From the IMG/VR virus record IMGVR_UViG_3300021375_000006: a DNA stretch of 64,000 nt; one strand, written 5' to 3'. The position numbers and the translations under genes were made by a program. The notes under the pieces were generated by a model. The model did no database searches. It saw nothing but the letters and a program-made list of their open reading frames with translations, and was not told the DNA's origin. This document shows, piece after piece, positions 13,583 to 40,138 of this stretch. Origin of the DNA: a virus (lineage: Duplodnaviria > Caudoviricetes). Numbering within the stretch: position 1 is the stretch's first letter; every line of letters starts with the position of its first letter.

Positions 13583-13609
13583 AAGGCTAGATTTATTCAT
13601 TATATGTGG

Positions 13610-19740: not shown

Positions 19741-20223
19741 CTAAAATAGCTTATTGTTTCTAATTTTACTACTAGGAGATAAATCAGCTGGTCGATCCCA
19801 CCTCATTTGAACTTCCTTCTGATAGAAGCCACATTTCTCATAAAAACCTATATTATCTTCTGAACAATTAAGAACTACTTTATAGCAACCCCTTTCGACC
19901 GCTAAGTCTTTTAGTCTTTCAATTAATAGTTTACCTAGACCTCTACTTCCAGCGTGCTTAGAAACCGCAACATCTTCTATTTGAGCAACTCTGTTACCAC
20001 CTCTAATTAATTTATTGATAGTAATTAATGAAGCAACGCCTACCACATAACCACCTTCTTCTGCAACATAGTAGTGAATATTAGGATTATCTAAAATATT
20101 CCACCACTGTCTATTAGATGGATTGGTCTTACCATTAAAGGCTTCTGTATAAATATCACAGATAGGTTCTAAATCCTCGTAAGTTGCTTTACGAATCTTT
20201 ACTTTTTGTTCTGAATTTTCCAT
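19741..20223 (-). CDS. GNAT acetyltransferase, glucosamine-6-phosphate N-acetyltransferase (GNA1)-like
   Basis: QIEDVAV, GSRGLGKLLI, GCYKVVLNCS, GFYEKCGF. Confidence 0.75.
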   Translation of the reverse strand: MENSEQKVKIRKATYEDLEPICDIYTEAFNGKTNPSNRQWWNILDNPNIHYYVAEEGGYVVGVASLITINKLIRGGNRVAQIEDVAVSKHAGSRGLGKLLIERLKDLAVERGCYKVVLNCSEDNIGFYEKCGFYQKEVQMRWDRPADLSPSSKIRNNKLF

Positions 20224-20879
20224 TTGTCGTATCGTGTCACGACCTCTTGAAGTATTTTAGCCCTAACAATATCTGACTCAGTAAAGATATGAGTACTAAT
20301 GCCTCTTATACCTTCTAATAATTCTATAAAACCAGGAAGACTAACTTGCGAAGCTGCAATATCTGCTTGGCTTACATCCCCTGTAACTACCACTTTACTT
20401 GACTTACCCATTCTTGTTACAAATAACATCAACTGTTTATATGTTGCGTTCTGTGCTTCATCAAGAATCATTAGGGCATCATCAAAAGTATCTCCTCTCA
20501 TATAGGCTAGTGGTTCGAATCGAATTACTTTTTTATCAAATAAGGTTTTAGTTAGCTCAACACCGATTATCTTTTCTATATTAGATTTGTAAGATCTCAT
20601 ATAAGGATCTACTTTATCATTAATATCTCCTGGTAAGTGACCCAACTTTTCACCCGCTTCTTGGATCGGCTTACATAATATAATTTCTTTAATCTTCTTT
20701 TCTTGCAACATTTCTAGCGCAGTATAACACGCTGTAAATGTTTTCGAAGTTCCAGCTGGTCCGTAACAAAACGTAATATCATTTTTATCAATAGTATCTA
20801 CGTAATTTCTTTGGTTAGGTTTTAATTGAATTCTTTTCAATCCTGCTGCAATCGATGCTGCTCTAGAGGTTCTTGCCAT
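20199..20879 (-). CDS. phoH: PhoH family ATPase
   Basis: GPAGTSKT, LAYMRGDTF, LDEAQN, TGDVSQAD. Confidence 0.93.
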   Translation of the reverse strand: MARTSRAASIAAGLKRIQLKPNQRNYVDTIDKNDITFCYGPAGTSKTFTACYTALEMLQEKKIKEIILCKPIQEAGEKLGHLPGDINDKVDPYMRSYKSNIEKIIGVELTKTLFDKKVIRFEPLAYMRGDTFDDALMILDEAQNATYKQLMLFVTRMGKSSKVVVTGDVSQADIAASQVSLPGFIELLEGIRGISTHIFTESDIVRAKILQEVVTRYDKWKIQNKK

Positions 20880-21791: not shown

Positions 21792-22373
21792 TCAAAATAT
21801 CTTTATGGCTTTTTTATATAAATGTCCGTTTGCCACAGCTTCATAGTTTTTAGTATACGGAAACACCACCTCTCTAGACCACATTCCATCTTTCCATTTA
21901 CCATCTTCACTTAAATGTGTACTATCACCATTTTTAATAAAAGTATTTGAAAAATGATATATTGTTTTTTTAGTAGACGCCCATTCCGGTGGATTAGGAT
22001 TTTCATTATGCATTTTATAGTAGCCTTGGATTTGTGGGTTTTGTTGCCATTCATATAAATCAAATAATTCATCTAAATAAACTACATCTGGGTATATCCC
22101 ATGCTTAAAACCTAAATGTGTAATCCAAGTCATAACAGATCTAATATTACTAGGAATATAGGGTCCTGTAATTACAAAATCAGCATCCCAAGAAATCCAA
22201 TCTTCTAAAATACTACCAGTTAAATAAAGCTCATGTTCACTAAATAAATATGGTTTACTTTTAATCTCTTTTAAAAAATCTTGAAACTTTTCATTTTCAA
22301 AAGAGTCAATACCATACCAGACGTCTGATTTATAGCCGCCATATTCAATAAGAGAATTATCCTTTGGAGTCAT
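21792..22373 (-). CDS. putative Pol-beta superfamily nucleotidyltransferase
   Basis: LTGS...DADFVI...PDVV. Confidence 0.5.
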   Translation of the reverse strand: MTPKDNSLIEYGGYKSDVWYGIDSFENEKFQDFLKEIKSKPYLFSEHELYLTGSILEDWISWDADFVITGPYIPSNIRSVMTWITHLGFKHGIYPDVVYLDELFDLYEWQQNPQIQGYYKMHNENPNPPEWASTKKTIYHFSNTFIKNGDSTHLSEDGKWKDGMWSREVVFPYTKNYEAVANGHLYKKAIKIF

Positions 22374-23157
22374 TTATTTTCTTAATATATTCAATTTGTG
22401 TATCATTTAACTCAGGGAAGCTAGCATTTATTTTACAAAGAAGACTACCTCTAATCTGAGTATCGTAATTAGGCCATCCCTTTTCACGAACCCTTAATAC
22501 TTTACCAGGTGTTGTTGCCTGTGGTACATGGATTGTAATCGGACCATCTAATGTAGATATTGTAATTTTAGTACCTGCCATAATTTCATACCATGGTAGA
22601 CTTACTTCTACCCATATATCATTATTTTGGTCTATAATAAATTCTGAACTCATTCTTACATGAATGTTCACTAATAAGTCTCCAGGCGGTAGTGTGCTAT
22701 TAAATGGATGTGCTTGCCCTTTACCTGCTAATTTAAACCTTTGTCCAGTTTTAACACCTGGTTTTAAATTAATAGTAGACTCATATCCATTTACTTGAAA
22801 TGTTTTACTACACCCTTGAAATGCTTCTTCAAATGAAATGTGCATATCTACTTTAATATCAGCACCTCTTGTTTGTTGGCGCCTTTGGCCACCAAAGAAT
22901 TGATTGAATAGATCTCCGAAGTTACCATCCATTCCACCCATATTACCAAAGCTGGCAAATGGATTATCTTGCATAACATCATATTGCTGGCGTTTTTGTT
23001 CATCGCCAACTACAGCATACGCGTCTGCAATTTCTTTAAACTTATTTTCATCACCACCTCGATCTGGGTGATGCTGCATACTAAGTTTCCTATAAGCTTT
23101 CTTAATTTCTGACTGAGTTGCTGTTTTGTCTACGCCTAAAGTTGCATAGTGACTCAC
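22357..23157 (-). CDS. dnaJ: DnaJ/CbpA-type co-chaperone lacking zinc finger
   Basis: J domain with HPD, G/F region, C-terminal domain, no CxxCxGxG repeats. Confidence 0.9.
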   Translation of the reverse strand: MSHYATLGVDKTATQSEIKKAYRKLSMQHHPDRGGDENKFKEIADAYAVVGDEQKRQQYDVMQDNPFASFGNMGGMDGNFGDLFNQFFGGQRRQQTRGADIKVDMHISFEEAFQGCSKTFQVNGYESTINLKPGVKTGQRFKLAGKGQAHPFNSTLPPGDLLVNIHVRMSSEFIIDQNNDIWVEVSLPWYEIMAGTKITISTLDGPITIHVPQATTPGKVLRVREKGWPNYDTQIRGSLLCKINASFPELNDTQIEYIKKINDSKG

Positions 23158-24616: not shown

Positions 24617-24988
24617 TTATTTGATAGAGATTTTCTTCTTATTATCAACTGAATCAAACTTAAGAGTTAAGATACCATTTGTCATAGTAGCGTTAATTGA
24701 ATCCATATCTACTGTGCTAGGTAATCTAAACTTCTTAGTAAATGATTGTGCAAATCCTTCGTCCTTCTTTTCAGAAGAGATCGTTAAGATCTGACCTTCA
24801 ACTTCAATGTTAATATCCTTCTTGCTAAATCCTGGCAAGCTAACATCTAGTTTGTTATCACCCACTTTATATTCTGGGCCTAGGATATTTAATGTGTCCC
24901 ACTCTCTTCTTGGGATTACGTTAAAGAATGAATCGAATGCTCCGTCGAAAGAGTCTTGTGCTAATTTTGATAAGTTTGTTAAATACAT
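24617..24988 (-). CDS. Hsp20/alpha-crystallin small heat-shock protein
   Basis: LPGFSKKDINIEVEG, FRLP, INATMTNGILTL. Confidence 0.92.
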   Translation of the reverse strand: MYLTNLSKLAQDSFDGAFDSFFNVIPRREWDTLNILGPEYKVGDNKLDVSLPGFSKKDINIEVEGQILTISSEKKDEGFAQSFTKKFRLPSTVDMDSINATMTNGILTLKFDSVDNKKKISIK

Positions 24989-25824: not shown

Positions 25825-26008
25825 ATCTTTAATTTCCTTTAAATACTAAAAAACATCTAGCGTTAACTAGATGTTCTTTATACGTTCGAAGTCTTATTTG
25901 TTTCTTAAGAACTTCCAGATTAGTCCTATTAAACTATCAGCTTTAAATTTCTTGCCCTTGTAGTTTAATAAGTAATCTTTTCTTTCATTGTTTTCCATAA
26001 TTGTTGTT

Positions 26009-26248
26009 TTAAGTCATCCAACCGCCAGATTCTTCCCAGTCTTTATGAGAAGATAGCATTGAATATGCCTCAAAAGAAAGTGTTACTTCAACATAACCCC
26101 CGGTTATAGATTGGGGACACTTAGACTCGCTTAGGTACCAGTTAGGTGCATCTTTAATCCTACCATTCAAAAAATCAAATAGTGGATCTATGTGCATGTG
26201 GTGTACCCATATATTGATATGCATACATGTCATGTTTGCTTTACCCAT
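26009..26248 (-). CDS. hypothetical protein
   Basis: 79-aa ORF. Confidence 0.55.
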   Translation of the reverse strand: MGKANMTCMHINIWVHHMHIDPLFDFLNGRIKDAPNWYLSESKCPQSITGGYVEVTLSFEAYSMLSSHKDWEESGGWMT

Positions 26249-27173
26249 TTTCTACGCTAAATCTTTTTTTGTCAAAGTTAATTGTACTTTTAATATCTTT
26301 CTTTTGGTACATATCTATCTGTTCGATTTCAGATGATTGTAATTTTTTACCGTAATGCTCTTGATAGACTTTTTTATAGATAAGTGCCATAACACCATAG
26401 AGAGGAGCAAACTCTGAAGACATTTCCACTACCCATGGTTTCCCATCTGTATCAACCATTAGGTCTATTGAGTATATGTCTAAACCTTCATGTGCCTTAT
26501 TCATTTCCTGAAATACTTCATTCCATTCCTTTGGCATTTTACTAAGATCTTTTAACACATACTTAAAGAATAGCTTGTCTTCTTTTTTCTTTGTCATCTC
26601 TTTGGTCTCCTTGTTACCATGTACTCTTTGTACCCACATAACAGGTTCACCTCTCCACATCATTATTCTGTGTTCTTCATCGATGTCTATCTTCTCGCTG
26701 AAGACTTCAAAGTCAGAAAGGTCCATATCATTAGCTTTTCTAAGGGTATCTATTTTAATAATACCTTGGCCCGAATATCTGTTATCGGGTTTCGCTATGA
26801 TAGGGAACTTTAACTGATCTAAATCTTTTGCATCTGAAACTGTCTTTGGCACATGTTTAGAATCTTTGTGAGTCTCATGCCATTTTACTTTCGATGCGAT
26901 TTCCATCTTCTTCTCCTTAGGATTATAGATTAGGTCTTTAGGAGTACCCGCATCTAATAGTCTTTTAGTGTGGATATTACAAAAGTTAATCACAGGCATA
27001 TCAGACTTAAATGGCTGATCGCCCTTCGTAAAGAGTTGCATAAAATTTCTAGTGTGTGCAGATTTATCTGTTACATACTTAAAGTCTGTAAGCTCTGTAG
27101 ATACACACATAACAACTTTGTGCAGTTCTCCATTTTTCTCGTTAAGAAATGTTTGGAAATCTTTAATTTTCAT
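26241..27173 (-). CDS. ATP-grasp ligase (RimK-like) with CTS-like N-terminus
   Basis: FPIIAKP...SGQGIIK, EHRI, SIDLMVD...WVVEMS; MKIKDFQTFLNE. Confidence 0.75.
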   Translation of the reverse strand: MKIKDFQTFLNEKNGELHKVVMCVSTELTDFKYVTDKSAHTRNFMQLFTKGDQPFKSDMPVINFCNIHTKRLLDAGTPKDLIYNPKEKKMEIASKVKWHETHKDSKHVPKTVSDAKDLDQLKFPIIAKPDNRYSGQGIIKIDTLRKANDMDLSDFEVFSEKIDIDEEHRIMMWRGEPVMWVQRVHGNKETKEMTKKKEDKLFFKYVLKDLSKMPKEWNEVFQEMNKAHEGLDIYSIDLMVDTDGKPWVVEMSSEFAPLYGVMALIYKKVYQEHYGKKLQSSEIEQIDMYQKKDIKSTINFDKKRFSVENG

Positions 27174-27192
27174 AGATTATATATCTATGATT

Positions 27193-27621
27193 TTAAGACG
27201 GGAATACTTCAATCGTTCTTTCTTCTCTAACTAAATCTGCCCACTTGCCTTCGTATCTTGTACCTTTGACAATATGGTTATCAACCCAGTGATAGTTACC
27301 ACCTCTTGGTTTACCCATTAGTAGACCATGGTATTTGAATCCATGTTTGTTTAACCAAGCTTCTGTAATATCTCTTACATCTTCAGTTCTTGAAGTAAAG
27401 AAAGTAATTACATGGCCTTCGTCAAACCATTTATTTAAAGTTTCTTTTGCACCTGCATAGGGTAAGACTACTGACATTCTCTCTGGCTCTTCGTTTGGTA
27501 CATCATCTGTAATTGTGCCGTCAATGTCAATTAGATAGTTCTTACACCCATCGTTTAAAACAGGAGAGACTAGGTGTCCGTCATCTCCTATTGTTTCGTT
27601 AAATTTAATTTCTCTTTTCAT
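27193..27621 (-). CDS. HAD phosphatase (capsule-biosynthesis phosphatase-like)
   Basis: LIDIDGTI, FFTSR, LLMGKPRGG, WVD. Confidence 0.8.
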   Translation of the reverse strand: MKREIKFNETIGDDGHLVSPVLNDGCKNYLIDIDGTITDDVPNEEPERMSVVLPYAGAKETLNKWFDEGHVITFFTSRTEDVRDITEAWLNKHGFKYHGLLMGKPRGGNYHWVDNHIVKGTRYEGKWADLVREERTIEVFPS

Positions 27622-27634
27622 ACTTTATTGTAAA

Positions 27635-29062
27635 TTAAGGTTCTTCGTGGTTTCTAATAAATGATACAATAATATATCTCTTACCACCTGTAATTGGCCT
27701 CGCGCCATGTCTATGTGTAATCATTCCAGGGTGAAGTACTGCTGTACCTATTTGCTCTGGATTGGATAATTTTTGATACTGAGGGAACCAAGTTCCACCG
27801 CCACTAAATTCATCATTTAATTTAATAACCATCGTTAGGTGGCTTCTATCATGGTGTAGAGATAGGTGTGATTGTCTAGTCGTTGTATACCTAGCCATGA
27901 AGTTTTCATTTGAGAATGCGTCCCATTGTTTACCTTCTAGGTTCCATTGGTGAATTGCAAGAGGCCTAACTACTTCATGTAATACTTTATTGTAAATTTC
28001 ATCTAGGCCAATATCTTGTAGTAAGACATCATTAGTTGGATAGTGTTCGTGTCTGTCAATAGTCCACTTATCTTTAGCCTCTGCTAGAGCAATTGCTTCT
28101 CTACAGAATCTAGGAGTAAATAACGGGAATTCATATACGTTATCTCCTCTATCTGAAACCATTAAGTCATACTCTCCCTTTGATACTGATAGATTAATAT
28201 ACTTCTCTTTCCATTCATCCCAATTAGATATATCTAATATTTCAAAATACTCTGATGTATCAATATCAAATTCTGGTCTTACATATTCTGTTTGAGTTTG
28301 TTCAGGTTCCTGGTTAATTATTTCACGTTGGTTTGGACTACCCACTTCTGGTTCTATTGTAGAACCTCCAAGTTTACCACCTCTATTCTGTACTATAAAA
28401 TTTGGATCGCGTGTTGCTAATATAGTTAATGATTTTGGAAATAGTTCTTGAATATCATGTCTTCTATGCGGATAACCTAGTGCACTTAAATACTCATCTA
28501 CAGGAATCACGTTTTCTTTTAATCCACCTGATAATAATAGTTTTGCTACATTAGGGTTTTTAATAATATATGCATGTGCATTATACCAGTGTCTAGGATA
28601 AAGCCAAGTTTCATTAATAACCTCTTCTTCAACTTCTTTTTCAATTATATCTCTACCTAATAAGGCAACATCCCAATTAGTATCTACTGGAGGCTCTGCC
28701 AACATTGACATTGAATTACCTTCATTAAAGAAATCTTCTTCTAATATTAGTATTGGACCTAGCCCATCGAATACTGCAGCTTCCCATACTTTTCTATGTG
28801 AAATTGCACAACCAACCTCTCCTGGTAAAACAGACCTTCTCCACCAATCATTCCAAGAATAAGGTGACTCAGGGCCCACATCCCATTTATCATAAACGGT
28901 ATAACCCTCTTTTATATCACCTTCTCTACCATCAAATGCAGAAATAATTTCATACGGGGTATTTTCATAAAACGCACATGATTGTAACTTTTCTTCTATT
29001 GTTTGCTGAAGACTCTCTCTATTTGAGTCTAAAGCTATAACATAAATTTTATTAATTCTCAT
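27635..29062 (-). CDS. GT25 (COLGALT-like) glycosyltransferase fused to PLOD-like lysyl hydroxylase
   Basis: N-half: FDGR, GEVGCAISHRKVW, ILEED, WDVALLGR, AYII, PVDEYL; C-half: YEFPLFT, FMARY, HHD, GGGTWF, HPGMITHRH, KRYIIVSF. Confidence 0.88.
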   Translation of the reverse strand: MRINKIYVIALDSNRESLQQTIEEKLQSCAFYENTPYEIISAFDGREGDIKEGYTVYDKWDVGPESPYSWNDWWRRSVLPGEVGCAISHRKVWEAAVFDGLGPILILEEDFFNEGNSMSMLAEPPVDTNWDVALLGRDIIEKEVEEEVINETWLYPRHWYNAHAYIIKNPNVAKLLLSGGLKENVIPVDEYLSALGYPHRRHDIQELFPKSLTILATRDPNFIVQNRGGKLGGSTIEPEVGSPNQREIINQEPEQTQTEYVRPEFDIDTSEYFEILDISNWDEWKEKYINLSVSKGEYDLMVSDRGDNVYEFPLFTPRFCREAIALAEAKDKWTIDRHEHYPTNDVLLQDIGLDEIYNKVLHEVVRPLAIHQWNLEGKQWDAFSNENFMARYTTTRQSHLSLHHDRSHLTMVIKLNDEFSGGGTWFPQYQKLSNPEQIGTAVLHPGMITHRHGARPITGGKRYIIVSFIRNHEEP

Positions 29063-29082
29063 TATTAGTTATGAATTTTTAT

Positions 29083-29110
29083 ATTATACTAAAGTAACGC
29101 GAAAAGTTTC
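29083..29110 (-). promoter_or_regulatory. class II promoter GAAAC-N17-TATAAT (upstream of GT25-LH; 12 further copies listed in findings)
   Basis: exact 17-bp spacing at 13 sites, all upstream of gene starts. Confidence 0.75.
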
Positions 29111-30645
29111 TCGTCCTCTAATAAGCTGTTATTATTTTTTTTAATATAGTATTGATCTACCTCTGTTAAGATACCCATAATATTTTTATAGTCTTCAGAT
29201 GCTAACATTTCTTCTTTCGAATTAAAGTGTTTAATACCATCAAGATCAAAATATTTTAAATCACCATTTTCGTCTATTGCACAATTATATACATTTACTA
29301 TATCAGTTAAAAGTATATTATGTTCTAGGGCTGCTTTAAAATGTTTTAAAATCTGTGGGTAAACTCCAATATCTACTGGCCACTTCCAGTCTTCCCAATC
29401 TGGATATATGTTATATTTAGCACAAAGAACTTGATCTGCTTCATACCTCTCTTGGACAGCAAATAATACACCCTTGTAGATTCCAACGTCATATAATTTA
29501 GGTACTATTCCTAAATCATATAATATTGAGTTTGTTTTTTTAATAACTAATAATTGCTTCATAGATGAAACAGGTGATGAAGCCCCAAAAGAAAATGGGT
29601 CAAGCGTTGCTTTACATGGGTAAATAAATTTTAGTAGATAATCATCATAATAAAAAACTTTATGATAATATCTAAAATCACCGTAATTATCAAAGTGTCC
29701 ACGGTATCTGTACCTGTCTTGGATTAATTTTTTAGTATTGATATTATCTGTATTGACCTTTATATCACATTCATTTACCTCAGCAATTACCTTTCCTGTT
29801 TCAGCCCACCAGTCTTTATATTCTAGCTTAAATTTATCTCTCTCAGGTTTGTGATATTTGTTTATTTGAACATCGTTTAAATAGCAATCAATACCTAACC
29901 CTACATCTTGCATGTATTTCTTTTGAATCTTATTACCAAGCTTAGCATCTATAGTATCAACCCAAGTACCTACCTGTCCAATCCTAAAATCATGAGTTGT
30001 ATATTTAACATCTGTATTAGACTCGTTAGGTAGTCTTACATCAACAGGTTTACTAATAGTATGTCCTAAGAATTTTGCTATCTTGTTTACAGAAGAATCA
30101 TACTCATTTATTATCTCTTCAAATGAAATGATTTCCATATCAAGATCAAGAAGTTCTTTGCTCATATAAACAGAAAACCAGTTCTTGTAATAATCTATTA
30201 ATAGATCTAAAAAGTTATCATGTTTTTTATCTGAAGACTTATATCCATCAAAATCAAAGTTTTCATAAAAGTCAGAGAAAGAAGTATATTTATTTTTAAT
30301 ATGGGGCCTATGATAACATGAAGTCATTATATCTCTAACATCTCTATAGATTAAGATTATTTTTGACTCAGAAAATATTTTTTGTAGTTTTTCTTCGTCA
30401 CCTAAATCTACAGAATGGTTGTGTTTGTAAAAATTTCTATAGTTATGAGAATGCGTCCATGTTACTTTATTACCTTCATTCATCCACCCATATAAACCGT
30501 TAAGTCCTGGCCATTCAAACTTAGTATAATCAAGATAATTTTTATCGATACTTTCATATCCAAAATTATTTACTATTAGATCTACTAATAAGTGAGTACC
30601 TCCTCTTCTTGCAGAAACTACTATAACATTCTTTTTAGAATCCAT
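29089..30645 (-). CDS. sulfotransferase-domain protein with C-terminal kinase-like domain
   Basis: SARRGGTHLL (5'-PSB), YRDVRDIMTS (3'-PB), ISFEE, FRIGQVGTW; C-half LTD..NVYN...YFDLDG. Confidence 0.7.
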   Translation of the reverse strand: MDSKKNVIVVSARRGGTHLLVDLIVNNFGYESIDKNYLDYTKFEWPGLNGLYGWMNEGNKVTWTHSHNYRNFYKHNHSVDLGDEEKLQKIFSESKIILIYRDVRDIMTSCYHRPHIKNKYTSFSDFYENFDFDGYKSSDKKHDNFLDLLIDYYKNWFSVYMSKELLDLDMEIISFEEIINEYDSSVNKIAKFLGHTISKPVDVRLPNESNTDVKYTTHDFRIGQVGTWVDTIDAKLGNKIQKKYMQDVGLGIDCYLNDVQINKYHKPERDKFKLEYKDWWAETGKVIAEVNECDIKVNTDNINTKKLIQDRYRYRGHFDNYGDFRYYHKVFYYDDYLLKFIYPCKATLDPFSFGASSPVSSMKQLLVIKKTNSILYDLGIVPKLYDVGIYKGVLFAVQERYEADQVLCAKYNIYPDWEDWKWPVDIGVYPQILKHFKAALEHNILLTDIVNVYNCAIDENGDLKYFDLDGIKHFNSKEEMLASEDYKNIMGILTEVDQYYIKKNNNSLLEDEKLFALL

Positions 30646-32671
30646 CTATGCCATCAGTTCTAGGGTTATCTTCTGTGATGCCGTTTCTTTCGAGCATCTT
30701 TTTATAGTCATCATTTATATTTCTGTCAAGAGTATTATATTGAGTATGCCAGTGGTATTTTAACCATTGGAACCCACCATAATCATATTTCCACGTATCA
30801 TAAAATGGTTTATATTGTTCATAGTGTGCCCTTAAAACTTCTTCACTAAAGAATGTGTGGAAATTACCCACATTTTTATGAATAGACCATTTATATTTTC
30901 TAGAATCATCTATACCAAGTGGTTCTAACTCTAAAAACTCAGAAACTTCACTTAAAAATTTACCTTGGTTCCAAAGTACATCTTCATATCTTAATACAAT
31001 ACAGTTATCTCCAAATTGTTTTGTATATGATTCTATTAATTCTGTTTGTTTATCTGCAATTTCATTCATGAATTCTACAACTCTAATATCGTCTGGATTA
31101 TTTGTGTAGTCTTTTGAATATATGTGAAGTCCATTATCAAAATTTAAAATGTTCATAGCAACTTCTCTAGGGTCAGATATAACTAAAAATACTTTAGTTT
31201 TATTTACATCAATAAACTCATCAATAACTTTATCTTCTAATGGAACATGGCTCTTAGACCATTTCGTTAGGTCAACTGTTTCCGGAAAGTTTTCTCTAAT
31301 TAACTCTTTAGATAATTCTGAACCAACCATCCTCCAGCCTACTAAAAGATATTCATTATTTTCATTAGGTTTCCTAAGCCATGTATCAGGTCCATTTCGC
31401 CATATACCAGGTCTTTCTTCTTTCCAATCTCCCTGTAAACCCATTGAATTTGTTACAGGCCTTACAGTCTTTTCTAATAACTTATTTTTTATTTTAAAAT
31501 ATTGTTCTGCATTATTTGTTATATGTGAATGCCATGCTTCTCCTGCTACATCCCATGTAAAATACCCTGCGGAATGTTCAGCATTACGTAATGCTTTATT
31601 TTTTAATTCTGTATCTATATCTAATAAAATCTTAGCGGCAAGATCAAACATCGTATCATAATCACTAAATGGCATAATTACCCCATCTTTAACAACTGAT
31701 GGTAAAGCCGCTTTATCTGAAACTATACATAAGACCCCATTCATTTGCATTTCCAATGCGGTTATACAAAATGTTTCTTCATAATCAGAAAGATATAACC
31801 AATATGTAGCTTTTTGAGCAGCAGAATATAGTTCTTGTTTAGAAACAGATCCCATATCTGTGACTCCCTGATCCTTTAAATCATTTAATTTATCTACTAC
31901 ACCATCTATATTATACCAACTTTCCTGTCCAGTTTCATTTGGATCAGAATATTTTGGATAATAAACATCTAAGGTTGCATTAGGCATTACCTTTTTAATT
32001 TTATACCAATTATCTAATAAAGCTACTAAACCTCTATCTACAGCAGATGCCCATATAAATTTATTTGGATCTTTAATAGTAGGTGCATTGTAGAAATCTT
32101 CTTTATTAATTCCATTAGGAATGGACATAAGTCCACCTCGCCATGTTGAATTATCTAGTCTAGCTGCATTTGCAATTTGGTTAGTAATTAAATTAGGATA
32201 TTTATTTTGAATTATATTTTCTACAACATGGTTAGATGCCCACTCTGATGGAGTTGTAATACATTGTATTTCGGTTAAATGTTTAAACTCTTCAAGACCT
32301 TCTATTGGTCTACCTTTATACCATGGTTCATATTCAGTATTGTGCATCCAAATCCATTTATATTTTGGATTTAGATCAGCATCTTCTAAGTAATTTAAAA
32401 AGTTTATATAGTTTACACCTATTACTATATCAAAGTAATCACTAGGTCTATGTAAAAAATTAAATTCAAATTCACCTAGGCCATGCCAAGTAACTCCATC
32501 AATCTTTTCACCATGTGAACTTTCAACCTCTCCGGCTACATGTACTTCATGGCCAAAATTTGATAATCGTTTACTTATCTCTATTACTGCTGTTTCTGTT
32601 CCGCCTAAACCGGTAGTTGTATTACCGTTAAATGTTTCAAATCGGTAACCTGTCCAAAATAGTATTCTCAT
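30635..32671 (-). CDS. GT4 (GT-B) glycosyltransferase fused to degenerate sulfotransferase-like domain
   Basis: GLGGTETAV, IWMHN, IPNGIN, EETFCITALEM; C-part ISDPRE, VLRYED. Confidence 0.75.
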   Translation of the reverse strand: MRILFWTGYRFETFNGNTTTGLGGTETAVIEISKRLSNFGHEVHVAGEVESSHGEKIDGVTWHGLGEFEFNFLHRPSDYFDIVIGVNYINFLNYLEDADLNPKYKWIWMHNTEYEPWYKGRPIEGLEEFKHLTEIQCITTPSEWASNHVVENIIQNKYPNLITNQIANAARLDNSTWRGGLMSIPNGINKEDFYNAPTIKDPNKFIWASAVDRGLVALLDNWYKIKKVMPNATLDVYYPKYSDPNETGQESWYNIDGVVDKLNDLKDQGVTDMGSVSKQELYSAAQKATYWLYLSDYEETFCITALEMQMNGVLCIVSDKAALPSVVKDGVIMPFSDYDTMFDLAAKILLDIDTELKNKALRNAEHSAGYFTWDVAGEAWHSHITNNAEQYFKIKNKLLEKTVRPVTNSMGLQGDWKEERPGIWRNGPDTWLRKPNENNEYLLVGWRMVGSELSKELIRENFPETVDLTKWSKSHVPLEDKVIDEFIDVNKTKVFLVISDPREVAMNILNFDNGLHIYSKDYTNNPDDIRVVEFMNEIADKQTELIESYTKQFGDNCIVLRYEDVLWNQGKFLSEVSEFLELEPLGIDDSRKYKWSIHKNVGNFHTFFSEEVLRAHYEQYKPFYDTWKYDYGGFQWLKYHWHTQYNTLDRNINDDYKKMLERNGITEDNPRTDGIDGF

Positions 32672-32672
32672 A

Positions 32673-33605
32673 TTATTTCTTTTTCTTCTTCTTCTTACTA
32701 CCACCAATACCACCGATTATCTTACCAGCTTTTTTGCCAGCATTACCGGCAGCATTACCAGCATCTTGTATAGGTTGAACTACTGGTTGAGCTGCTCTAG
32801 CGGCTTCATCTTTTTTTCTTTGTAATTCTGCTGCGGCTGCATCTGCTTGTCTTTTAGATTCTGCTGCGGCTGCATCTGCTTGTCTTTTAGATTCTGCTGC
32901 GGCTTCGTCTAATCTAAGTTTTTCTGCTGTTTCTTCTGCTAGTTTTTGAGCCGCTTCTTGTGCTGGATTAGTATTAACACTTACTGAAGTATCTACATCA
33001 ACCCCGACTAAAAGTGCTACTTTTCCGTCAACACCGACTGTTGCAACTCCATCATCCATCGTAGCTCCACCGCCAACTGCGGCTCCTGCTTGAACCCCAG
33101 CTGATACTCCAGCTCCAATTTCAGCACTATTACCATCGTCATCAGATACTGTATTAGATGCTCCAACTCCAACTGATGCTCCAGCTACTGCTCCTGCATG
33201 TCCTTCTGCTCCATCCATACCAACTTGTCCACCAGCCGATACTCCAGCACTTGCTTGAGCTCCTGCATGAACTTCGGTTTCATTTGAAATATCTCCATTT
33301 TCTACTGTATTAGATGCACCAACTTCTACTGATGTTCCAACTTCTGCTCCAGCTTCTACTTTGGCATTTCTACCATCGAATCCAGCTTCAGCGCCAGCTT
33401 CTACATGTGCTTCTGCATCTGCATGTGCTTCCTGTTTAAGTTCAAAGTCACCAATTGTATCTGTGTTTTCTACACCAGCATGAGCTTCAGCTCCCGCTTC
33501 TGCTCCAGCCGATACTGAAGTATCTGTTACTTCTGTTCCAGCACTTGCTCCTGCGGATGCTCCTAGGTTTTCATCACCTACTGATTTGTTTATTTCTTCT
33601 GACAT
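32673..33605 (-). CDS. Gly/Ala/Val-rich beta-repeat protein with helical C-part and poly-Lys tail
   Basis: AGAEAGAEAHAG-type repeats; QADAAAAESKR repeats; GSKKKKKKK end. Confidence 0.7.
   Translation of the reverse strand: MSEEINKSVGDENLGASAGASAGTEVTDTSVSAGAEAGAEAHAGVENTDTIGDFELKQEAHADAEAHVEAGAEAGFDGRNAKVEAGAEVGTSVEVGASNTVENGDISNETEVHAGAQASAGVSAGGQVGMDGAEGHAGAVAGASVGVGASNTVSDDDGNSAEIGAGVSAGVQAGAAVGGGATMDDGVATVGVDGKVALLVGVDVDTSVSVNTNPAQEAAQKLAEETAEKLRLDEAAAESKRQADAAAAESKRQADAAAAELQRKKDEAARAAQPVVQPIQDAGNAAGNAGKKAGKIIGGIGGSKKKKKKK
32826..32903 (-). repeat. 33-bp tandem repeat (QADAAAAESKR)
   Basis: ttctgctgcggctgcatctgcttgtcttttaga twice plus a partial copy. Confidence 0.85.
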
Positions 33606-33621
33606 AAAATTTATTATTATA

Positions 33622-34245
33622 TTATTTGTAATGTGAGCCACCAACCCATAAAACTAAAGATCTTCTAGTACCCTTGGTGACAGGAGATACTCTATGCATC
33701 ATATAACTTGGAAAAAGAACTGCGACTCCTCTACCTCTCGGACAGGTTGTTGCTCCCCAATCATTTGAAGTATCACCACCGGAAGTAATTTGTAATTCAC
33801 CACCTTCATATTCGTCTGAATCTGATAATTGAATTGTAATAGAAACTTTTCTTCTAGAGGGTAATTCACCAGGACCTATATCTTGGTGCCAGTCGTAGTG
33901 CCCATTTTCATGAGCATAATATTCTGTATATTGAATTTGTTCTGGAGCAGAGTGTAGATCGAATTGCCATAGATTATTATTTGCCTCTTCAGCAAAACCA
34001 ATTAATCTTTTATATAGCCAGTCCCAATCTTTATTCTGTGGAACCCATTTTACCATTGAGGAACGAACTCCTTCAGGATCGTTACCCTCAATAGTTTCGC
34101 CATCTGAGCCGATTGTAGTTGCTCGTTCTACTGGAAGTTCACTAGCTAATTTAATAATTTTACTAACCTCTTCCTTAGTTAAACCTTCTTTAAACCAATA
34201 CCATTGTTGTGGATCGTTTGTTGGTTGATTAAAACTGTAAGTCAT
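33622..34245 (-). CDS. 2OG-Fe(II) oxygenase, prolyl-4-hydroxylase-like phage family
   Basis: IQYTEY, WHQD (HxD), RKVSITIQLS, YEGGEL, FPSYMMHRVSPVTKGTRRSLV. Confidence 0.88.
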   Translation of the reverse strand: MTYSFNQPTNDPQQWYWFKEGLTKEEVSKIIKLASELPVERATTIGSDGETIEGNDPEGVRSSMVKWVPQNKDWDWLYKRLIGFAEEANNNLWQFDLHSAPEQIQYTEYYAHENGHYDWHQDIGPGELPSRRKVSITIQLSDSDEYEGGELQITSGGDTSNDWGATTCPRGRGVAVLFPSYMMHRVSPVTKGTRRSLVLWVGGSHYK

Positions 34246-34309
34246 GAAATAATGTTTAATAGTTATACAATAAAAAGTAAAAAAGTTTACAGTTTATTTA
34301 TCAACCTTA

Positions 34310-35230
34310 TTAAACATCAGTTAAAGTAGCTGTTGCAGTTAATTGAGGTACGCCCTTATTATTACTATCAATATTATTTAATGTCATGATAATAGTTTCA
34401 TCTTCCTCCTTCTCATCATCTAAGACGTAGTTCAATGTAACTTGAGCTTGTCCGTTTGTAAATACAAATTTACCAAAAGCCCAACCCATTGTTGATGGTT
34501 CATAATCAGCTAAACCTACGTAACCATCTGCTTCAGCCTGGGCGCGGACATCTAAAATATCTTGCCAAGAGTTAGCAACTAACCCTACACTTTCATCTGC
34601 CGTTACATCCCATATATTAGCAGTACCAAGAAGGTAGAACGAAACTATAGTTCCATCAGGTACGTTATCTGCAGTTAGAGTCCATGTTGAGCTAGTGCCT
34701 TCAGGTGATATTGCAGGAGTAACTGATAACTGATAATTAGTTGGAAGTACCTCTGTTATTGTAGTAGTAGTCACTGGTGCTGGATAAGTCTCTGCTGGCA
34801 TACCTAATTGTGCTTTAACAGCTTCTGCTCTAGCATTTAATTCATTAAGTGCATCTAAACATAAAATTGAAAGAGCTTCATAGTCTATCCAATAATAATC
34901 CTCATCTACACCTAGCCAGTCCATAATCCTTACAAGACTTGGTTCTACTGCAGCTAATTCTTGTGCAATCAAACCAATTCTTTTAGGTTGTACTCCACCA
35001 AATTCTTCAGGTCTATCCCATCCAAATTCCTGACCTAATTCGTTCATATAGAAATAATAGGTTTCTAAAGCTTTGATTTTTTCAGTGGCAGAACCAACTG
35101 GTAAATTAATCTCTTTAGATAAAAGGTGTTGTGCCGCTGGTTTAATATCAACCGCGTACGCCCATCCACCTGAACCGTCGTTCTTTAAACTAAATCCAGG
35201 ATCGTAATTCCAATTCTCTATACCTGCCAT
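34310..35230 (-). CDS. stand-alone S74-type fibre chaperone-like domain plus C-terminal Ig/Calx-beta-like domain
   Basis: KIKALETYYF, IGLIAQELAAVEPSLV, IDYEALSILCLDALNELN; DDEKEEDETIIMTL. Confidence 0.65.
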   Translation of the reverse strand: MAGIENWNYDPGFSLKNDGSGGWAYAVDIKPAAQHLLSKEINLPVGSATEKIKALETYYFYMNELGQEFGWDRPEEFGGVQPKRIGLIAQELAAVEPSLVRIMDWLGVDEDYYWIDYEALSILCLDALNELNARAEAVKAQLGMPAETYPAPVTTTTITEVLPTNYQLSVTPAISPEGTSSTWTLTADNVPDGTIVSFYLLGTANIWDVTADESVGLVANSWQDILDVRAQAEADGYVGLADYEPSTMGWAFGKFVFTNGQAQVTLNYVLDDEKEEDETIIMTLNNIDSNNKGVPQLTATATLTDV

Positions 35231-35261
35231 TTTATATTTATATTTTTATTTTATATTAATT

Positions 35262-37604
35262 TTAATAATATCCCATGTAACACATCCCGTATTGTGGACC
35301 GTCAACACTAGCACAACCCGTGACATAATTAATTGAACATGCACAAAGGTGTTGACTATAATAACCAGACGCAGATGATGACAGACTATTCCCTTCACAG
35401 TCTGTATAATAAATAGTCGAATAACATCCACCTCTATTAATTGTCCAATCGTAACATGAACATACAGCTCCAGCAGGGCCTTGAGGGCCTGCAGCACCTC
35501 TGTCACCTCTATCTCCACCATCTCCAGTTGAACCAATACTACCAGCAGGACCTTGTGGACCTTTTGGACCTTGTGAACCGTTAGCACCTTTTGGACCTGT
35601 ACCACCTTGAGCACCTGTAGCACCCTTTGGTCCTTGTGGACCAATTCCACCTTTTGGGCCGGTAACACCTTTATCACCGGTAACACCCTTTGGTCCTTGT
35701 GGACCAATTCCACCTGGAGAACCAGTTAGACCATCTGCCCCAACTGCACCTTTTGGTCCGGTAGGGCCTTGACTACCTATAATACCCTTTGCACCTTGTG
35801 AGCCAGTACCACCTGGAGAACCAGTTAGACCAGTTGGACCAGTTGCACCTTTAGCACCTGTTACACCTTTTGCACCTAAGTTACCTTTAGCACCTTGAAG
35901 ACCGTTGATACCTATACCACCAGTTGCACCAGTATCACCAGTTACACCTTTAGATCCCCCTGGACTTAGACCAGTTGCACCTTGTGCACCTGTATCACCT
36001 ACAGGAGCAGTACCTATTGTACCTTTATTACCTACATCACCACCAGCACCTTTAGCACCTTGATCTCCGGTTGCACCTATGCCGCCTTGATCTCCGCCGC
36101 CGCCTGTAGCACCTTGTGCACCTGTATCACCACCAGCACCTTTTGCACCAGTATCACCTATTATACCTTTATCGCCACCGCCGCCTGTAGCACCTTGAGC
36201 ACCAGTATCACCACCGCCACCTTTTAAACCTTGTGGACCCGTTGCACCTTGATCTCCGCCGCCACCTACAGCACCTACAGCACCTAAATCACCACCAGCA
36301 CCTTTAAGACCAGTATCACCTATAGGACCCTGGTCACCTGTAGCACCAATAATACCTTTTGCACCAGTATCACCTATTGGACTAGCACCTACAGCACCAC
36401 CAGCACCTTTAGCACCAGTATCACCTATTGGACTAGCACCTACAGCACCAATAATACCTTTTGCACCTTGATCTCCACCAGCACCTTTTGCACCAGTATC
36501 ACCTATTACACCTTTAGGGCCAATATTACCAGTAGCTCCCTGATCACCTGTTACACCTTTTGGACTATCACCAACGCCACCTTGAGGGCCTTGAGGACCA
36601 GTAACACCTTTAAGACCAACAGCACCAATATTACCTTGATCTCCGCCGGCACCTTTTGCACCTGTACCACCTTGGTCTCCAATTGGAGCAGTTCCTTGTG
36701 GACCTATTATACCTTTTTGACCAGTATCTCCACCAGCACCTTTCGAACCAGTATTACCAGTATCACCTGTAGCACCAATAATACCTTTTGCACCAGTATC
36801 ACCGATTGGACTATCACCACCAGCACCTTTTGCACCAGTATCACCTATATCACCTTGGCCACCAACAGCACCAATATTACCTTGATCTCCGCCAGCACCT
36901 TTTAAACCAACAAGACCTTGATCTCCACCAGGGCTAGTACCTTGATCTCCGCCGCCGCCTTGGGCACCGACTACACCTTGAGAGCCTGTAGCACCAAGAG
37001 CACCAACTGGACCTTGCGTACCGCCAGCTCCTTGTTCTCCTATTTCACCAAGATCACCTCCACCGCCGATAGCACCAGTATCACCTTGTGCGCCAGTACC
37101 ACCTGGAGAACCAATTGCACCACCATCACCTGTTATACCTTTTGGAGAATCACCACCAGCACCTTTAGCACCAGTATCACCAGTTACACCTTGTGGACCT
37201 TGATCGCCAACAACACCTGCAATACCGGCATCACCACCAGCACCTTTTGCACCAGTATCTCCTCCACCGCCGACATCACCAGTTGGACCAGTAGTACCTA
37301 TATCACCTTTTGAAGCAGGAGTAGTATGGTTATCACCAGCACCACCTGAATTACCAGGAGCACCTTGGTCACCACCGTCACCACTTCCACCAGTACCGCC
37401 TTTATTACCTTTGTTTCCTGGAGCACCTTGTAAACCTTTGACACCTTGGTCGCCACCGCCACCTTTAGCACCTTTAGTACCTTTTGCACCTGTTTCACCT
37501 TTTGTACCCGGCTCTCCTACTAAATAAGGAAAGTTTTTAGGTTCAAAATTAGAATCAGTCAGTACTTGGTTACCTGCGACAAGTATGTTTCTGTAATCAG
37601 CCAT
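35262..37604 (-). CDS. collagen-like fibre 2 (kinked, Gly-rich) with 8-Cys tip
   Basis: about 219 GXY triplets, nine Pro-X insertions, one 7-aa break. Confidence 0.92.
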   Translation of the reverse strand: MADYRNILVAGNQVLTDSNFEPKNFPYLVGEPGTKGETGAKGTKGAKGGGGDQGVKGLQGAPGNKGNKGGTGGSGDGGDQGAPGNSGGAGDNHTTPASKGDIGTTGPTGDVGGGGDTGAKGAGGDAGIAGVVGDQGPQGVTGDTGAKGAGGDSPKGITGDGGAIGSPGGTGAQGDTGAIGGGGDLGEIGEQGAGGTQGPVGALGATGSQGVVGAQGGGGDQGTSPGGDQGLVGLKGAGGDQGNIGAVGGQGDIGDTGAKGAGGDSPIGDTGAKGIIGATGDTGNTGSKGAGGDTGQKGIIGPQGTAPIGDQGGTGAKGAGGDQGNIGAVGLKGVTGPQGPQGGVGDSPKGVTGDQGATGNIGPKGVIGDTGAKGAGGDQGAKGIIGAVGASPIGDTGAKGAGGAVGASPIGDTGAKGIIGATGDQGPIGDTGLKGAGGDLGAVGAVGGGGDQGATGPQGLKGGGGDTGAQGATGGGGDKGIIGDTGAKGAGGDTGAQGATGGGGDQGGIGATGDQGAKGAGGDVGNKGTIGTAPVGDTGAQGATGLSPGGSKGVTGDTGATGGIGINGLQGAKGNLGAKGVTGAKGATGPTGLTGSPGGTGSQGAKGIIGSQGPTGPKGAVGADGLTGSPGGIGPQGPKGVTGDKGVTGPKGGIGPQGPKGATGAQGGTGPKGANGSQGPKGPQGPAGSIGSTGDGGDRGDRGAAGPQGPAGAVCSCYDWTINRGGCYSTIYYTDCEGNSLSSSASGYYSQHLCACSINYVTGCASVDGPQYGMCYMGYY

Positions 37605-37622
37605 TTATTATTTTATGTTTAT

Positions 37623-40091
37623 TTAAGAACCTAATTGACTCTCAATACCTGTTAATTTCGTATCTAATTCTTTAATAGCCTCAATTAAAACAGCAGATAG
37701 TTTAGAGTAATCAACTCCTCTATAACCTTCTTCTGGATCTAATCCTGGAATTTGGAATACTAATTCTGGGAATTGAGCTTGTACCTCTTCGGCAAGCACA
37801 CCCATTCTAGGAGCAGTACCCATTCCTAATGATTGTGCGAATTCATTCGGATTCCAAATTACACCTCTAATTGCATTAATTTTAGTTAAGGTATTTCCAA
37901 TTGGACCTTCAATATTCTTTAATCTAGAATCTGAAGTTCCCGGAGGACCTGTAGGACCAGTTGCACCTTTTTGACCTTTTGGACCTTTTGGACCTTGTGA
38001 ACCTGTAGGACCTTGTGGACCAGTTAAACCTTGTGGACCAGTATTACCTTTTAAACCTTGTGGACCTGTTGCACCAGTATTACCTTTAAGACCAGTAGGA
38101 CCTGGAGAACCTCCGGGACCTGTAGGGCCAGTTGCACCAGTATTACCTTTAACTCCCTGTGGACCTGTAGGACCTCCGGGACCTGCAGGACCAGTTGCAC
38201 CAGTATTACCTTTAGCTCCCTGTGGACCTGTAGGACCAGTAGTACCTTTAATACCTTGTGAACCAGTAGCACCTTTAACTCCAGTAGGACCTTGTGGACC
38301 TTGTGCACCTCCACCACCTTGTGGACCGACTGGGCCTTGAGCACCTATATCACCTTTTGGACCAGTTGGACCTGAAGGCCCCGTTACACCTTTAAGACCA
38401 GTATCACCTTTTGGACCATTTGGACCTTTAGCTCCAGCAGGACCTTGTGGACCTTTAGCTCCCTGAGGACCTTTTGGACCAGCAGGACCTTGTGCCCCTT
38501 GACCACCTTGAGGACCTTTAGCCCCTTGACCACCTTGAGGACCTTTAGCACCTTGTGGACCGACTGGGCCTTTAGCACCTTGTGGACCAGTAACACCTTT
38601 TTGTCCTTTAACACCTTGTGGACCAGTATCACCTTTTGGACCAGTTGGACCTTTTGGACCTCCAGGACCAGTTGCACCAGTGTCACCTTTAGCACCTGTT
38701 GCACCTCCTGCACCTCCTGCACCAGTGTTACCTTTAGCACCTTGTGGGCCTTGACCACCCTGAGGACCTTTAGCTCCTTGTGGACCAGTATTACCTTTTG
38801 GACCGATTGGGCCTTTAACTCCTTGTGGACCAGTTGGACCAGTAACACCTTTAGCACCAGTATTACCTTGTGGACCTTTAGCACCTTGTGGACCAGTAAC
38901 ACCTTTAGCTCCAGCAGGACCTTGTGGACCAGTTGGACCAGTAACACCTTTTTGTCCTTTAACACCTTGTGGACCAGTATCACCTTTTGGACCAGTTGGA
39001 CCAATTATACCTTGTGGACCAGTATTACCTTTTAAACCTTGTGGACCAGTATTACCTTTAGTACCCTGTGGACCAACAGCACCTACACCACCTTGTGGAC
39101 CTTGTAGACCTTGACCACCTTGAGGACCTTTTAAACCTTGTGGACCAGTAGGACCTTGTGGACCTTTTGGACCAGCAATACCCTGTGGACCTTGCGGGCC
39201 AGTTATACCTTTTTGCCCTTTATCACCTTGTGGGCCAGTAGGACCTTGTGGACCTTTAACTCCTTGTGGACCAATTGGACCTTGCGGGCCTTTAGCCCCT
39301 TGTGGACCTTTTGCACCTTGTGGACCAGTATTACCTTTTGGTCCTTTTGGACCTTGTAGACCTTGACCACCTTGAGGACCTTTTAAACCTTGTGGACCAG
39401 TTGGACCAGTTTGACCTTTAGCTCCAGCAGGACCTTGTGGACCTTTCGGGCCAGTTACACCTTTTAAACCTTGTGGACCTTTATCACCTTGAGCTCCTTG
39501 TGGACCGGTTGAACCTTTTAATCCACCAGGACCTTGTGTACCTTGTGGACCTTTTGCACCCTGAGCCCCTTGAGGACCTTGAGGACCTTTAACACCCTGA
39601 GGACCTTGAGCACCTGTATCACCTTTAACACCTTGAGGACCAGTTGGACCTTTTGGGCCTTGCGCACCAGTTACACCTTTTAAACCTTGTGAACCCGTTG
39701 CACCTTTAACTCCAGGACCACCCTGCGATCCCTTTGTACCTTGTTCACCTCCTGGGCCTTTAGCTCCTTGTGGGCCTTTAGCTCCAACTTCACCTTTTTG
39801 GCCTTTTGAACCAGCTAAACCTGGGGCACCCTTTGCACCGCCAACACCTTTAGCTCCTTGTCCACCTTTTTGACCTTTTTGACCTGGATCACCGCCGCCA
39901 CCTTGTGGGCCTTTAGGACCTTGACTTCCAACTTCACCTTTTAGACCCTTTTCTCCACCGGGGCCTTGTTGTCCTTGGTCTCCCTTGGATCCTGTAGCTC
40001 CTTTCATGGCACTGTATTGTGTAGGGTCGAAGTTTCCAGCTGTTAGAATAATAGATCCTTGTACTGTAGCTCCTGCTTTTAAATTTGCCAT
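37623..40091 (-). CDS. collagen-like fibre 1 with C-terminal peptidase S74 intramolecular chaperone
   Basis: 229 uninterrupted GXY triplets; SDSRLKN...GVLAEEV...VDYSKL...EAIKEL. Confidence 0.95.
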
Positions 40092-40113
40092 TTCTTAGTT
40101 TTTCTTATTTTAA

Positions 40114-40122
40114 TTATATATC
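40114..40122 (-). promoter_or_regulatory. class III (late-type) promoter GATATATAA upstream of collagen 1 (further copies in findings)
   Basis: motif at 11 sites, strand-matched to downstream genes. Confidence 0.7.
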
Positions 40123-40138
40123 AAATTTTGTTATTAGG

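Follow-up and report, generated by a model that had tools for sequence, protein, structure and literature searches.

A predicted lysyl hydroxylase fused to a COLGALT1-like glycosyltransferase and encoded near collagen-like tail fibres in a marine tailed phage

We have examined a gene of a tailed virus (Duplodnaviria; Caudoviricetes; IMG/VR record IMGVR_UViG_3300021375_000006) that encodes, in one chain of 475 amino acids (aa), a glycosyltransferase domain of family GT25 followed by a lysyl hydroxylase (LH) domain. The gene lies in a 64,000-nucleotide stretch of DNA, which was analysed as a whole and is called the window hereafter. An earlier note, made from the letters of the window alone, had read the gene as a COLGALT-like galactosyltransferase joined to a PLOD-like LH, and this assignment holds by sequence, by profile and by fold. 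From the homology of both halves and from the genomic context, we consider it likely that the fusion is a bifunctional enzyme, a collagen-lysine hydroxylase and hydroxylysine glycosyltransferase, which would modify the phage's own fibres in the cytoplasm of the infected bacterium. Other genomes encode the fusion too, which belongs to a large phage family. What is new, when compared with the known mimivirus L230 and the human LH3/COLGALT1 pair, is the GT25 partner and the bacteriophage setting.

The open reading frame (ORF) begins at an initiator methionine that its homologues share. All eight motifs quoted in the earlier note were found on the minus strand and in the order given there, with GEVGCAISH (residues 81-89), WDVALLGR (130-137) and PVDEYL (187-192) in the GT25 half, and FPLFT (312-316), FMARY (388-392), HHDRSH (403-408), HPGMITHRH (444-452) and KRYIIVSF (461-468) in the LH half. 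The COLGALT1 counterparts that the earlier note had given for the first three (GELGCFLSH, WDLIYVGR and PVDEFL) appeared in the HMMER alignment to the COLGALT1 chains of the Protein Data Bank (PDB). Pfam family PF01755 (GT25) matched residues 4-120 with an E-value of 7.8e-12 and 45.9 bits, above the cut-off of 24 bits. Searched as a single sequence, residues 73-199 matched the catalytic C-terminal GT25 domain of human COLGALT1 (E ~5e-8). A family profile built from 30 phage GT25 domains matched COLGALT1 over the whole domain with an E-value of 1.5e-29, as against 9.5e-9 for the bacterial GT25 8xlz and 3.6e-8 for mimivirus R655. Neither of the domains that accompany these folds in the known enzymes was encountered: Pfam gave no match to the PLOD-type glycosyltransferase PF25342 in the 475-aa fusion, and the non-catalytic GT2-like N-terminal domain of COLGALT1/2, which binds UDP-Gal, was not found in a protein that begins directly with GT25.

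In the C-terminal half, Pfam recognised the OGFOD2-like N-terminal part of a 2-oxoglutarate (2OG) oxygenase at residues 296-369, and residues 280-469 matched, among solved structures, the LH domain of mimivirus L230 (6ax6, E 2e-28) and human LH3 (E 4e-23). With phmmer, the E-value of 2e-28 for L230 stood against 0.09 for prolyl 4-hydroxylases (P4H), which identifies an LH rather than a generic 2OG oxygenase. An AlphaFold2 model of the fusion had a mean predicted local distance difference test (pLDDT) score of 82. The GT25 half was modelled above 90 as a complete GT-A fold, the linker comprising residues 228-269 was disordered, and the C-terminal half adopted a double-stranded beta-helix (DSBH). 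The Foldseek comparison that the earlier note had suggested placed the C-terminal half on the LH domain of L230 (template-modelling (TM) score 0.83, root-mean-square deviation 2.8 Å) and the N-terminal half on COLGALT1 (9evj, E 4e-13), above R655 and bacterial GT25 (E 4e-7). The similarities, far outside what chance would produce, confirmed that the N-terminal half is much closer to COLGALT1 than to bacterial GT25 and that the C-terminal half is a PLOD/L230-type LH.

The residues required by an LH are present. Aligned to L230, the Fe ligands H403, D405 and H452 and the 2OG-binding R462 correspond to H825, D827, H877 and R887, and the four are invariant in all of the 121 family members compared. 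The HxD...H/R set was thus intact, as had been claimed. The LH of L230 forms a homodimer in which a leucine (L873) is inserted in an aromatic pocket made of Y798, Y801 and Y831 (PMC5802723). Prediction of a homodimer from two copies of residues 270-475 gave a score of 0.38, compared with 0.00 for the best control, a value in which memory may have a part because like complexes (L230, LH3) have been solved. The mark applied to this score had been calibrated on solved proteins and was reached by 21 of 30 that form same-chain pairs and by none of 23 single chains. Three runs concurred in at least 88% of the contacts, with a partner pLDDT of at least 85, and the predicted interface residues W373, L409 and I448 occupy the positions aligned with Y798, Y831 and L873 of L230.

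For the GT25 half we took as reference the residues reported to be essential in the ternary complex of COLGALT1 (PMC12987934). The acidic pair that contacts the UDP ribose and Mn2+ (D436/D437) maps to E109/D110, and across the family the first position is D or E in 116 of 121 proteins and the second is D in 107. D189 takes the place of the catalytic base D522 and E190 that of E523; C412, G377, L348 and Y494 map to C85, G45, L11 and the conserved Y160. The window protein and 100 of the 121 homologues retain both acidic pairs, D/E109-D110 and D189-E190, and the catalytic residues of the window protein are intact. Further along the chain, the linker carries S234 in 94 and T235 in 65 of the 121 homologues. 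COLGALT1 has a lid loop that is disordered in the absence of substrate (PMC12987934), and the S234-T235 linker possibly corresponds to it, judging from that description rather than from an alignment.

A search of 5.8 billion protein sequences returned more than 500 matches or clusters. The best 120 are all full-length, with 99-100% coverage and 49-97% identity, and bear no other names than "hypothetical protein" or "GR25 family glycosyltransferase". Clusters of the ESM Atlas with the GT25-LH architecture are 96-100% viral and mostly assigned to Uroviricota. The gene was found in the seawater metagenomes of many studies. Parts of the enzyme and fibre genes (window 26000-41000) also occur on metatranscriptome contigs of four studies, labelled marsh, marine, aquatic and freshwater. 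Three of these studies contain pieces identical to the fusion gene and the fourth a 1.8-kb contig that spans the whole gene at ~96% identity, which indicates presence in RNA libraries, not transcription.

The candidate substrates lie a few genes away. The ORF at 37623-40091, which the earlier note had proposed to contain a GXK domain, is indeed a collagen-like fibre, with the collagen domain at residues 31-720. In its Gly-X-Y triplets, position X is Pro 98 times and position Y is Lys 69, Gln 73 and Thr 52 times, and Lys does not occur at X. Its residues 715-822 are related to the C-termini of annotated tail-fibre genes of cultured phages, in 99 phage records. The second collagen-like fibre has 39 Lys at Y and none at X, so that the two nearest fibres together carry 108 Lys at Y and none at X. 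In all fetched loci, 4735 collagen triplets held Lys 781 times at Y and 32 times at X. As a control, seven fibre regions of cultured phages lacking LH were fetched via the fibre C-terminal domain; they contained three short Gly-rich runs (10, 28 and 34 triplets) with 1, 3 and 2 Lys at X and none at Y, a sample too small to use.

A second search, anchored on the neighbouring HAD phosphatase gene, yielded relatives with and without LH. We called a locus Lys-rich when a collagen ORF with at least 10 Lys at Y lay within 10 kb, and LH-positive loci were required to have at least 7 kb of upstream flank. Such a collagen was present at 9 of 14 distinct LH-positive loci and at none of 10 LH-negative loci, counts that are not independent, the loci being phylogenetically related. 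Therefore, the link between LH and Lys-rich collagen is strong but not universal in the loci examined.

The same domains are joined in several other ways. In the contigs L027-L032 of our set, an ORF of 202-211 aa encodes the LH by itself; in one of them (L028) this separate LH gene shares 28 nt with a 275-aa GT25 gene upstream of it, with three further 2OG oxygenases after them. Another contig (L034) has GT4 fused to LH, beside a 2334-aa ORF in which 53 collagen triplets carry Lys at Y 34 times. When the GT25 domain was run as a query against 1.84 billion representative proteins, it retrieved GT4-GT25-LH proteins of ~815 aa, GT25-PLOD_GT-2OG proteins and a C39-peptidase-GT25-LH protein, among others. 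The contigs bearing the GT4-GT25-LH and GT25-PLOD_GT proteins are too short to show a gene neighbourhood. Two cultured phages encode a GT25-PLOD_GT-LH protein annotated as hypothetical. In Roseobacter phage CRP-6, whose host is FZCC0042, it is gp58 (QBQ72782.1; 589 aa; L001, 5971-7740), which has Lys in place of the 2OG-binding R462; in the 99 triplets of the tail fibre gp60 beside it, 26 Lys stand at Y and none at X. In Synechococcus virus S-PRM1, whose host is WH7803, it is AXN58392.1 (614 aa; L052, 6663-8507), and ahead of it lie two P4H-like oxygenases and also a giant fibre, in which 23 Lys stand at Y and none at X. The existence of fused, split and adjacent forms is the strongest argument supporting a coupled function in which hydroxylation would be followed by glycosylation. 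As a separate observation, the ESM Atlas lists a cluster of 533-aa Uroviricota proteins in which GT25 is fused to a Tet/JBP oxygenase, with the same "hydroxylate then glycosylate" logic, apparently on DNA bases.

From homology and context we infer each chemical step, the donor sugar, the substrate and the order of the steps, as follows. The LH domain, probably acting as a homodimer of the L230/LH3 type, would use Fe(II), 2OG and O2 to convert the Y-position Lys of Gly-X-Lys into 5-hydroxylysine in the still-unfolded chains of the fibres at 37623-40091 and 35262-37604. The GT25 domain, presumably Mn-dependent and inverting as is the GT-A catalytic domain of COLGALT1, would then transfer a hexose from a UDP-sugar to the 5-hydroxyl just formed, D189 serving as the base; galactose as the hexose is a guess by homology. 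A second sugar probably comes from the adjacent GT4, which belongs to a retaining family; an alpha linkage, as in the animal Glc-alpha-1,2-Gal, would suit such an enzyme. Finally, two sulfotransferase-like domains encoded by this phage may decorate the glycan further with sulfate.

Several observations weigh against this proposed function, and the first of them concern the substrate. Bacterial collagens in general typically have Pro at X with Thr or Gln at Y (PMC8968730); the presence of Lys at Y is thus, by itself, consistent with modification by the fusion without being diagnostic of it. Five LH-positive loci, four of them close relatives (L008, L015, L016 and L020) and the other L013, have no Lys-rich collagen within 10 kb. 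A search of three such LH-positive contigs over their whole length for the alternating GXK pattern gave no match, although these contigs are 27-45% complete and cannot show absence. In addition, Lys-poor fibres are common to the LH-less L078 and the LH-positive L016. We had considered L078, a syntenic relative with Lys-poor collagen, as a clean control, and it was dropped on finding the same fibres in L016. These exceptions would be expected if the enzyme modified a non-collagen protein of phage or host, with Lys in another context, and the collagen fibres nearby were a coincidence of shared ancestry, an explanation that also draws on the fact that much of the co-occurrence falls inside one phage lineage, where counts are not independent. 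However, unrelated phages (the podovirus-like CRP-6, the cyanomyovirus S-PRM1 and the L034 contig) also pair an LH enzyme with a fibre bearing Lys only at Y; the nearest relatives of known function, L230 and LH1-3, all modify X-Lys-Gly of collagens; and the incompleteness of the exception contigs blunts the negative search. We consider a non-collagen substrate improbable.

A second set of adverse points concerns the acceptor of the sugar. The acceptor cleft of COLGALT1 comprises a "YW" motif (Y494, W495) and K470; of these Y494 is kept as Y160, but W495 and K470 correspond to N161 and D138 in the fusion, and neither is conserved. We had also taken D189-E190 as a possible signature of a hydroxylysine acceptor, given that E523 anchors the epsilon-amino group in COLGALT1. 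This candidate was dropped, because the lipopolysaccharide (LPS)-type bacterial GT25 8xlz, whose acceptor is a sugar, has the sequence P-I-D-E, and the D-E pair is thus not diagnostic. It could be that the LH domain hydroxylates fibre Lys while GT25 glycosylates something else, either Ser/Thr of the nearby Gly-Ser-Ser fibres or a host surface glycan, as LPS-type GT25 enzymes do. The unconserved cleft fits this alternative, as do homologues annotated [quoted passage not shown], the two other window fibres with Ser at nearly every Y, and the GT25-Tet/JBP fusions of other phages, which suggest that the acceptors of phage GT25 domains are varied. Against it, the GT25 family profile matches COLGALT1 better than it does the characterised bacterial GT25, by 20 orders of magnitude, and at least four architectures, independent of one another, have GT25 either joined to LH in one chain or encoded right beside it. 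On balance, we regard a different acceptor as unlikely.

The last adverse points concern the conservation of the GT25 half. Mean identity among homologues is 76% in the LH half and 47% in the GT25 half. About 20 of the 121 homologues form a subclade, to which the window protein does not belong, with a decayed GT25 domain and the loss of its catalytic motifs (GExGC, EDD and DE), and locus L026 has an LH alone in the syntenic slot after GT4. Together, the decayed subclade and the LH-only locus imply that glycosylation by this domain is dispensable in some lineages. Both the much faster evolution of the GT25 half and the retention of the domain in the subclade after loss of its motifs would suit a non-catalytic scaffold of the kind seen in the accessory domain of LH3 and in the N-terminal domain of COLGALT1, which is inactive; the fusion would then only hydroxylate, and any sugar would come from the separate GT4. 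We find this very improbable, since the metal pair, the catalytic base and the UDP contacts are all present in the fusion and in 100 of 121 homologues, and the domain was modelled as a complete GT-A fold with pLDDT above 90. A bifunctional enzyme acting on the collagen-like fibres remains our preferred reading.

The enzyme is part of a conserved gene order. The window belongs to a tailed marine phage with a phage-type helicase and several tail fibres, and nearly all of its genes lie on one strand. Besides the accessory genes ordinary in large marine phages (Table 1), it encodes RNase HII. Megablast of 12 kb against cultured phages gave no match; the synteny is common to the window and many IMG/VR viral contigs of 40-210 kb. 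Among the GTDB species genomes there was one match, a 24-kb contig in a metagenome-assembled genome of Flavobacteriaceae that may be a binned phage contig, which gives a hint that the host is a member of this family. In 40 related loci, the collagen-like fibres are followed by a P4H/PiuC-like 2OG oxygenase, then GT4, then GT25-LH, and after these by a block comprising a HAD phosphatase, an ATP-grasp ligase, an exonuclease, HSP20 and DnaJ. The P4H/PiuC-like oxygenase might act on the fibres by hydroxylating their many X-position prolines, and DnaJ and HSP20 might, speculatively, hold fibre chains unfolded for modification. The HAD phosphatase gene also occurs in relatives that lack the whole modification cassette.

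The GT4 half stands directly upstream of GT25-LH in 24 loci. In the window, and only there, its gene continues into a C-terminal domain with a weak sulfotransferase-like match (Pfam E 0.0033, below the cut-off); related phages have the GT4 part (query residues ~15-400) without this tail. The 40 related loci gave no homologue of the sulfotransferase gene at 29089-30645, an insertion peculiar to this phage. The encoded enzyme may add to the modification of the glycan, its membership of the cassette being uncertain. Its C-terminal domain gave no PDB or Pfam match. As a lead only, the ESM Atlas features of this domain resemble those of small kinases (WaaY, RIO1, APH, Kdo) with a score of ~0.91. 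Elsewhere in the window, a DUF6445 gene with a weak 2OG-oxygenase signal (2641-3231, minus strand) has counterparts beside LH genes on two unrelated contigs (L028, 11155-11715; L046, 701-1264).

Table 1. Location of the fusion gene, its domains and other features of the window
Feature	Position	Strand	Evidence or remark
GT25-LH fusion ORF, 475 aa	27635..29062	(-)	ATG start; >500 full-length homologues
GT25 (COLGALT1 CGT-like) domain, aa 1-227	28382..29062	(-)	PF01755, profile and Foldseek
Linker, aa 228-269, low confidence	28256..28381	(-)	pLDDT <50; holds S234-T235 ("STIE")
PLOD/L230-type LH (2OG/Fe(II) DSBH) domain, aa 270-475	27638..28255	(-)	6ax6 and LH3 matches
Collagen-like tail fibre, 822 aa, 230 uninterrupted Gly-X-Y triplets, candidate substrate	37623..40091	(-)	
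Second collagen-like tail fibre, 780 aa, 216 triplets, candidate substrate	35262..37604	(-)	PHROG tail fibre, E 9e-76
Sulfotransferase with extra ~260-aa C-terminal domain, between GT4 and GT25-LH	29089..30645	(-)	PF00685, E 1.1e-11
GT4 (GT-B), ~aa 1-400, second-sugar candidate	30635..32713	(-)	Glycos_transf_1, E 3.9e-6
P4H/PiuC-like 2OG-Fe(II) oxygenase	33622..34245	(-)	PF13640, E 7e-15; PiuC 9ghl, E 2e-6; in 21 related loci
Small HAD phosphatase	27193-27621	(-)	~90% identical across phages; always after GT25-LH
ATP-grasp ligase (TTL/RimK-like, weak Pfam)	26241-27173	(-)	Always after GT25-LH
DnaJ (J domain and C-terminal domain) and HSP20	22357-23157 and 24617-24988	(-)	Same conserved syntenic block
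Gly-Ser/Thr-Ser fibres, almost no Lys	42307-45015 and 50006-53308	(-)	Ser at Y in 166/184 and 92/183
DUF2827 among fibre genes	45094-46362	(-)	E 5e-83
UvdE, PvuII-like endonuclease, dCMP deaminase and PhoH (ordinary large-marine-phage accessory genes)	12659-13600, 15507-16028, 4946-5455 and 20199-20879	(-)	

A full-text literature search, mostly outside subscription journals, found no description of an LH or a COLGALT-like enzyme in bacteriophages, and the CRP-6 paper makes no mention of collagen, hydroxylase or glycosyltransferase. Viral precedent comes from mimivirus L230, R699 and R655 (PMC5802723, PMC9546862). A more general precedent is found in bacterial operons that link other dioxygenases, sulfotransferases, tail-collar proteins and collagen-like peptides (Iyer et al. 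2010, PMC2938197). Prokaryotic collagens were described in a 2022 review as mostly free of hydroxylation and glycosylation (PMC8968730). Collagen hydroxylysine glycosylation has been treated as an animal trait with mimivirus as the sole viral exception, and the family described here would extend this chemistry to abundant marine bacteriophages. If the proposed function is correct, modification of receptor-binding fibres could affect fibre stability, host range or protease resistance. The fused, split and re-fused forms provide direct material on the origin of the LH3/COLGALT1 two-enzyme system, which is presented as an open question in PMC12003778. Since the enzymes are small, lack the animal accessory domains and are native to bacteria, they are candidates for producing hydroxylated and glycosylated recombinant collagen in bacteria. 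With CRP-6 and S-PRM1 in culture, the prediction can already be tested.

A wider picture can be drawn, which we regard as doubtful. Tailed phages of the ocean would routinely place glycosylated hydroxylysine in their fibres, and in the phage studied here the glycan would be extended by GT4 and then sulfated, perhaps also phosphorylated, through the two inserted genes of sulfotransferase type, to give a proteoglycan-like fibre resembling the animal matrix. The compact fusions (GT25-LH, GT25-PLOD_GT-LH and GT4-GT25-LH) would then bear on a common origin of LH3 and COLGALT1 (PMC12003778).

The fusion can be set beside several known systems. With the bacterial GT25 beta-1,4-galactosyltransferase 8xlz and mimivirus R655 (9crz) it shares the GT25 GT-A fold and the GExGC, EDD and xDE motifs; however, this similarity is far weaker (~1e-8, against 1e-29 for COLGALT1), both of those enzymes are stand-alone, and the acceptor of the characterised bacterial enzyme is a sugar. 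CRP-6 gp58 and S-PRM1 AXN58392.1 have GT25 and LH in the same order and are likewise encoded next to a collagen-like fibre whose Lys are confined to Y, but they contain an extra PLOD-type glycosyltransferase between the two domains and are ~25-30% identical to the fusion.

The closest viral analogue is mimivirus L230, described as a bifunctional collagen lysyl hydroxylase and hydroxylysyl glucosyltransferase in PMC5802723 and, as relayed in PMC12220804, by Luther et al. 2011. Both are single viral chains with a glycosyltransferase and a C-terminal LH, and L230 acts on the virus's own collagen-like proteins. Their LH domains share ~31% identity, a TM score of 0.83, the same Fe and 2OG residues and, at the predicted dimer interface, equivalent residues. 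The contrast drawn in the earlier note also stands, in that L230 and the PLOD enzymes pair LH with the PLOD-type glycosyltransferase PF25342 and not with GT25. L230 adds glucose and has 895 aa, whereas the 475-aa fusion has GT25 and belongs to a tailed bacteriophage, with the bacterial cytoplasm as its setting.

Lastly, the fusion can be compared with human LH3/PLOD3 and COLGALT1/GLT25D1 (PMC11897130, PMC12987934, PMC12003778). It had been stated that in animals the two consecutive steps are on separate proteins. The chains are separate, as stated, and this view has to be refined in that LH3 and COLGALT1 form a physical complex (the KOGG complex; PDB 8zgc; PMC11897130), so that the phage fusion mirrors a known partnership. 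The phage protein differs from the human pair by lacking the GT2-like N-terminal domain of COLGALT1, the glycosyltransferase and accessory domains of LH3 and endoplasmic reticulum targeting, and W495 and K470 of COLGALT1 are not conserved in it. A GT4 (GT-B) gene stands in the phage where animals use the GT-A domain of LH3 for the second sugar. Both systems have in common the same two catalytic domain families and, as far as homology indicates, the same order of chemistry on X-Lys-Gly, from Lys to hydroxylysine to galactosyl-hydroxylysine, with the two domains covalently joined in the phage.

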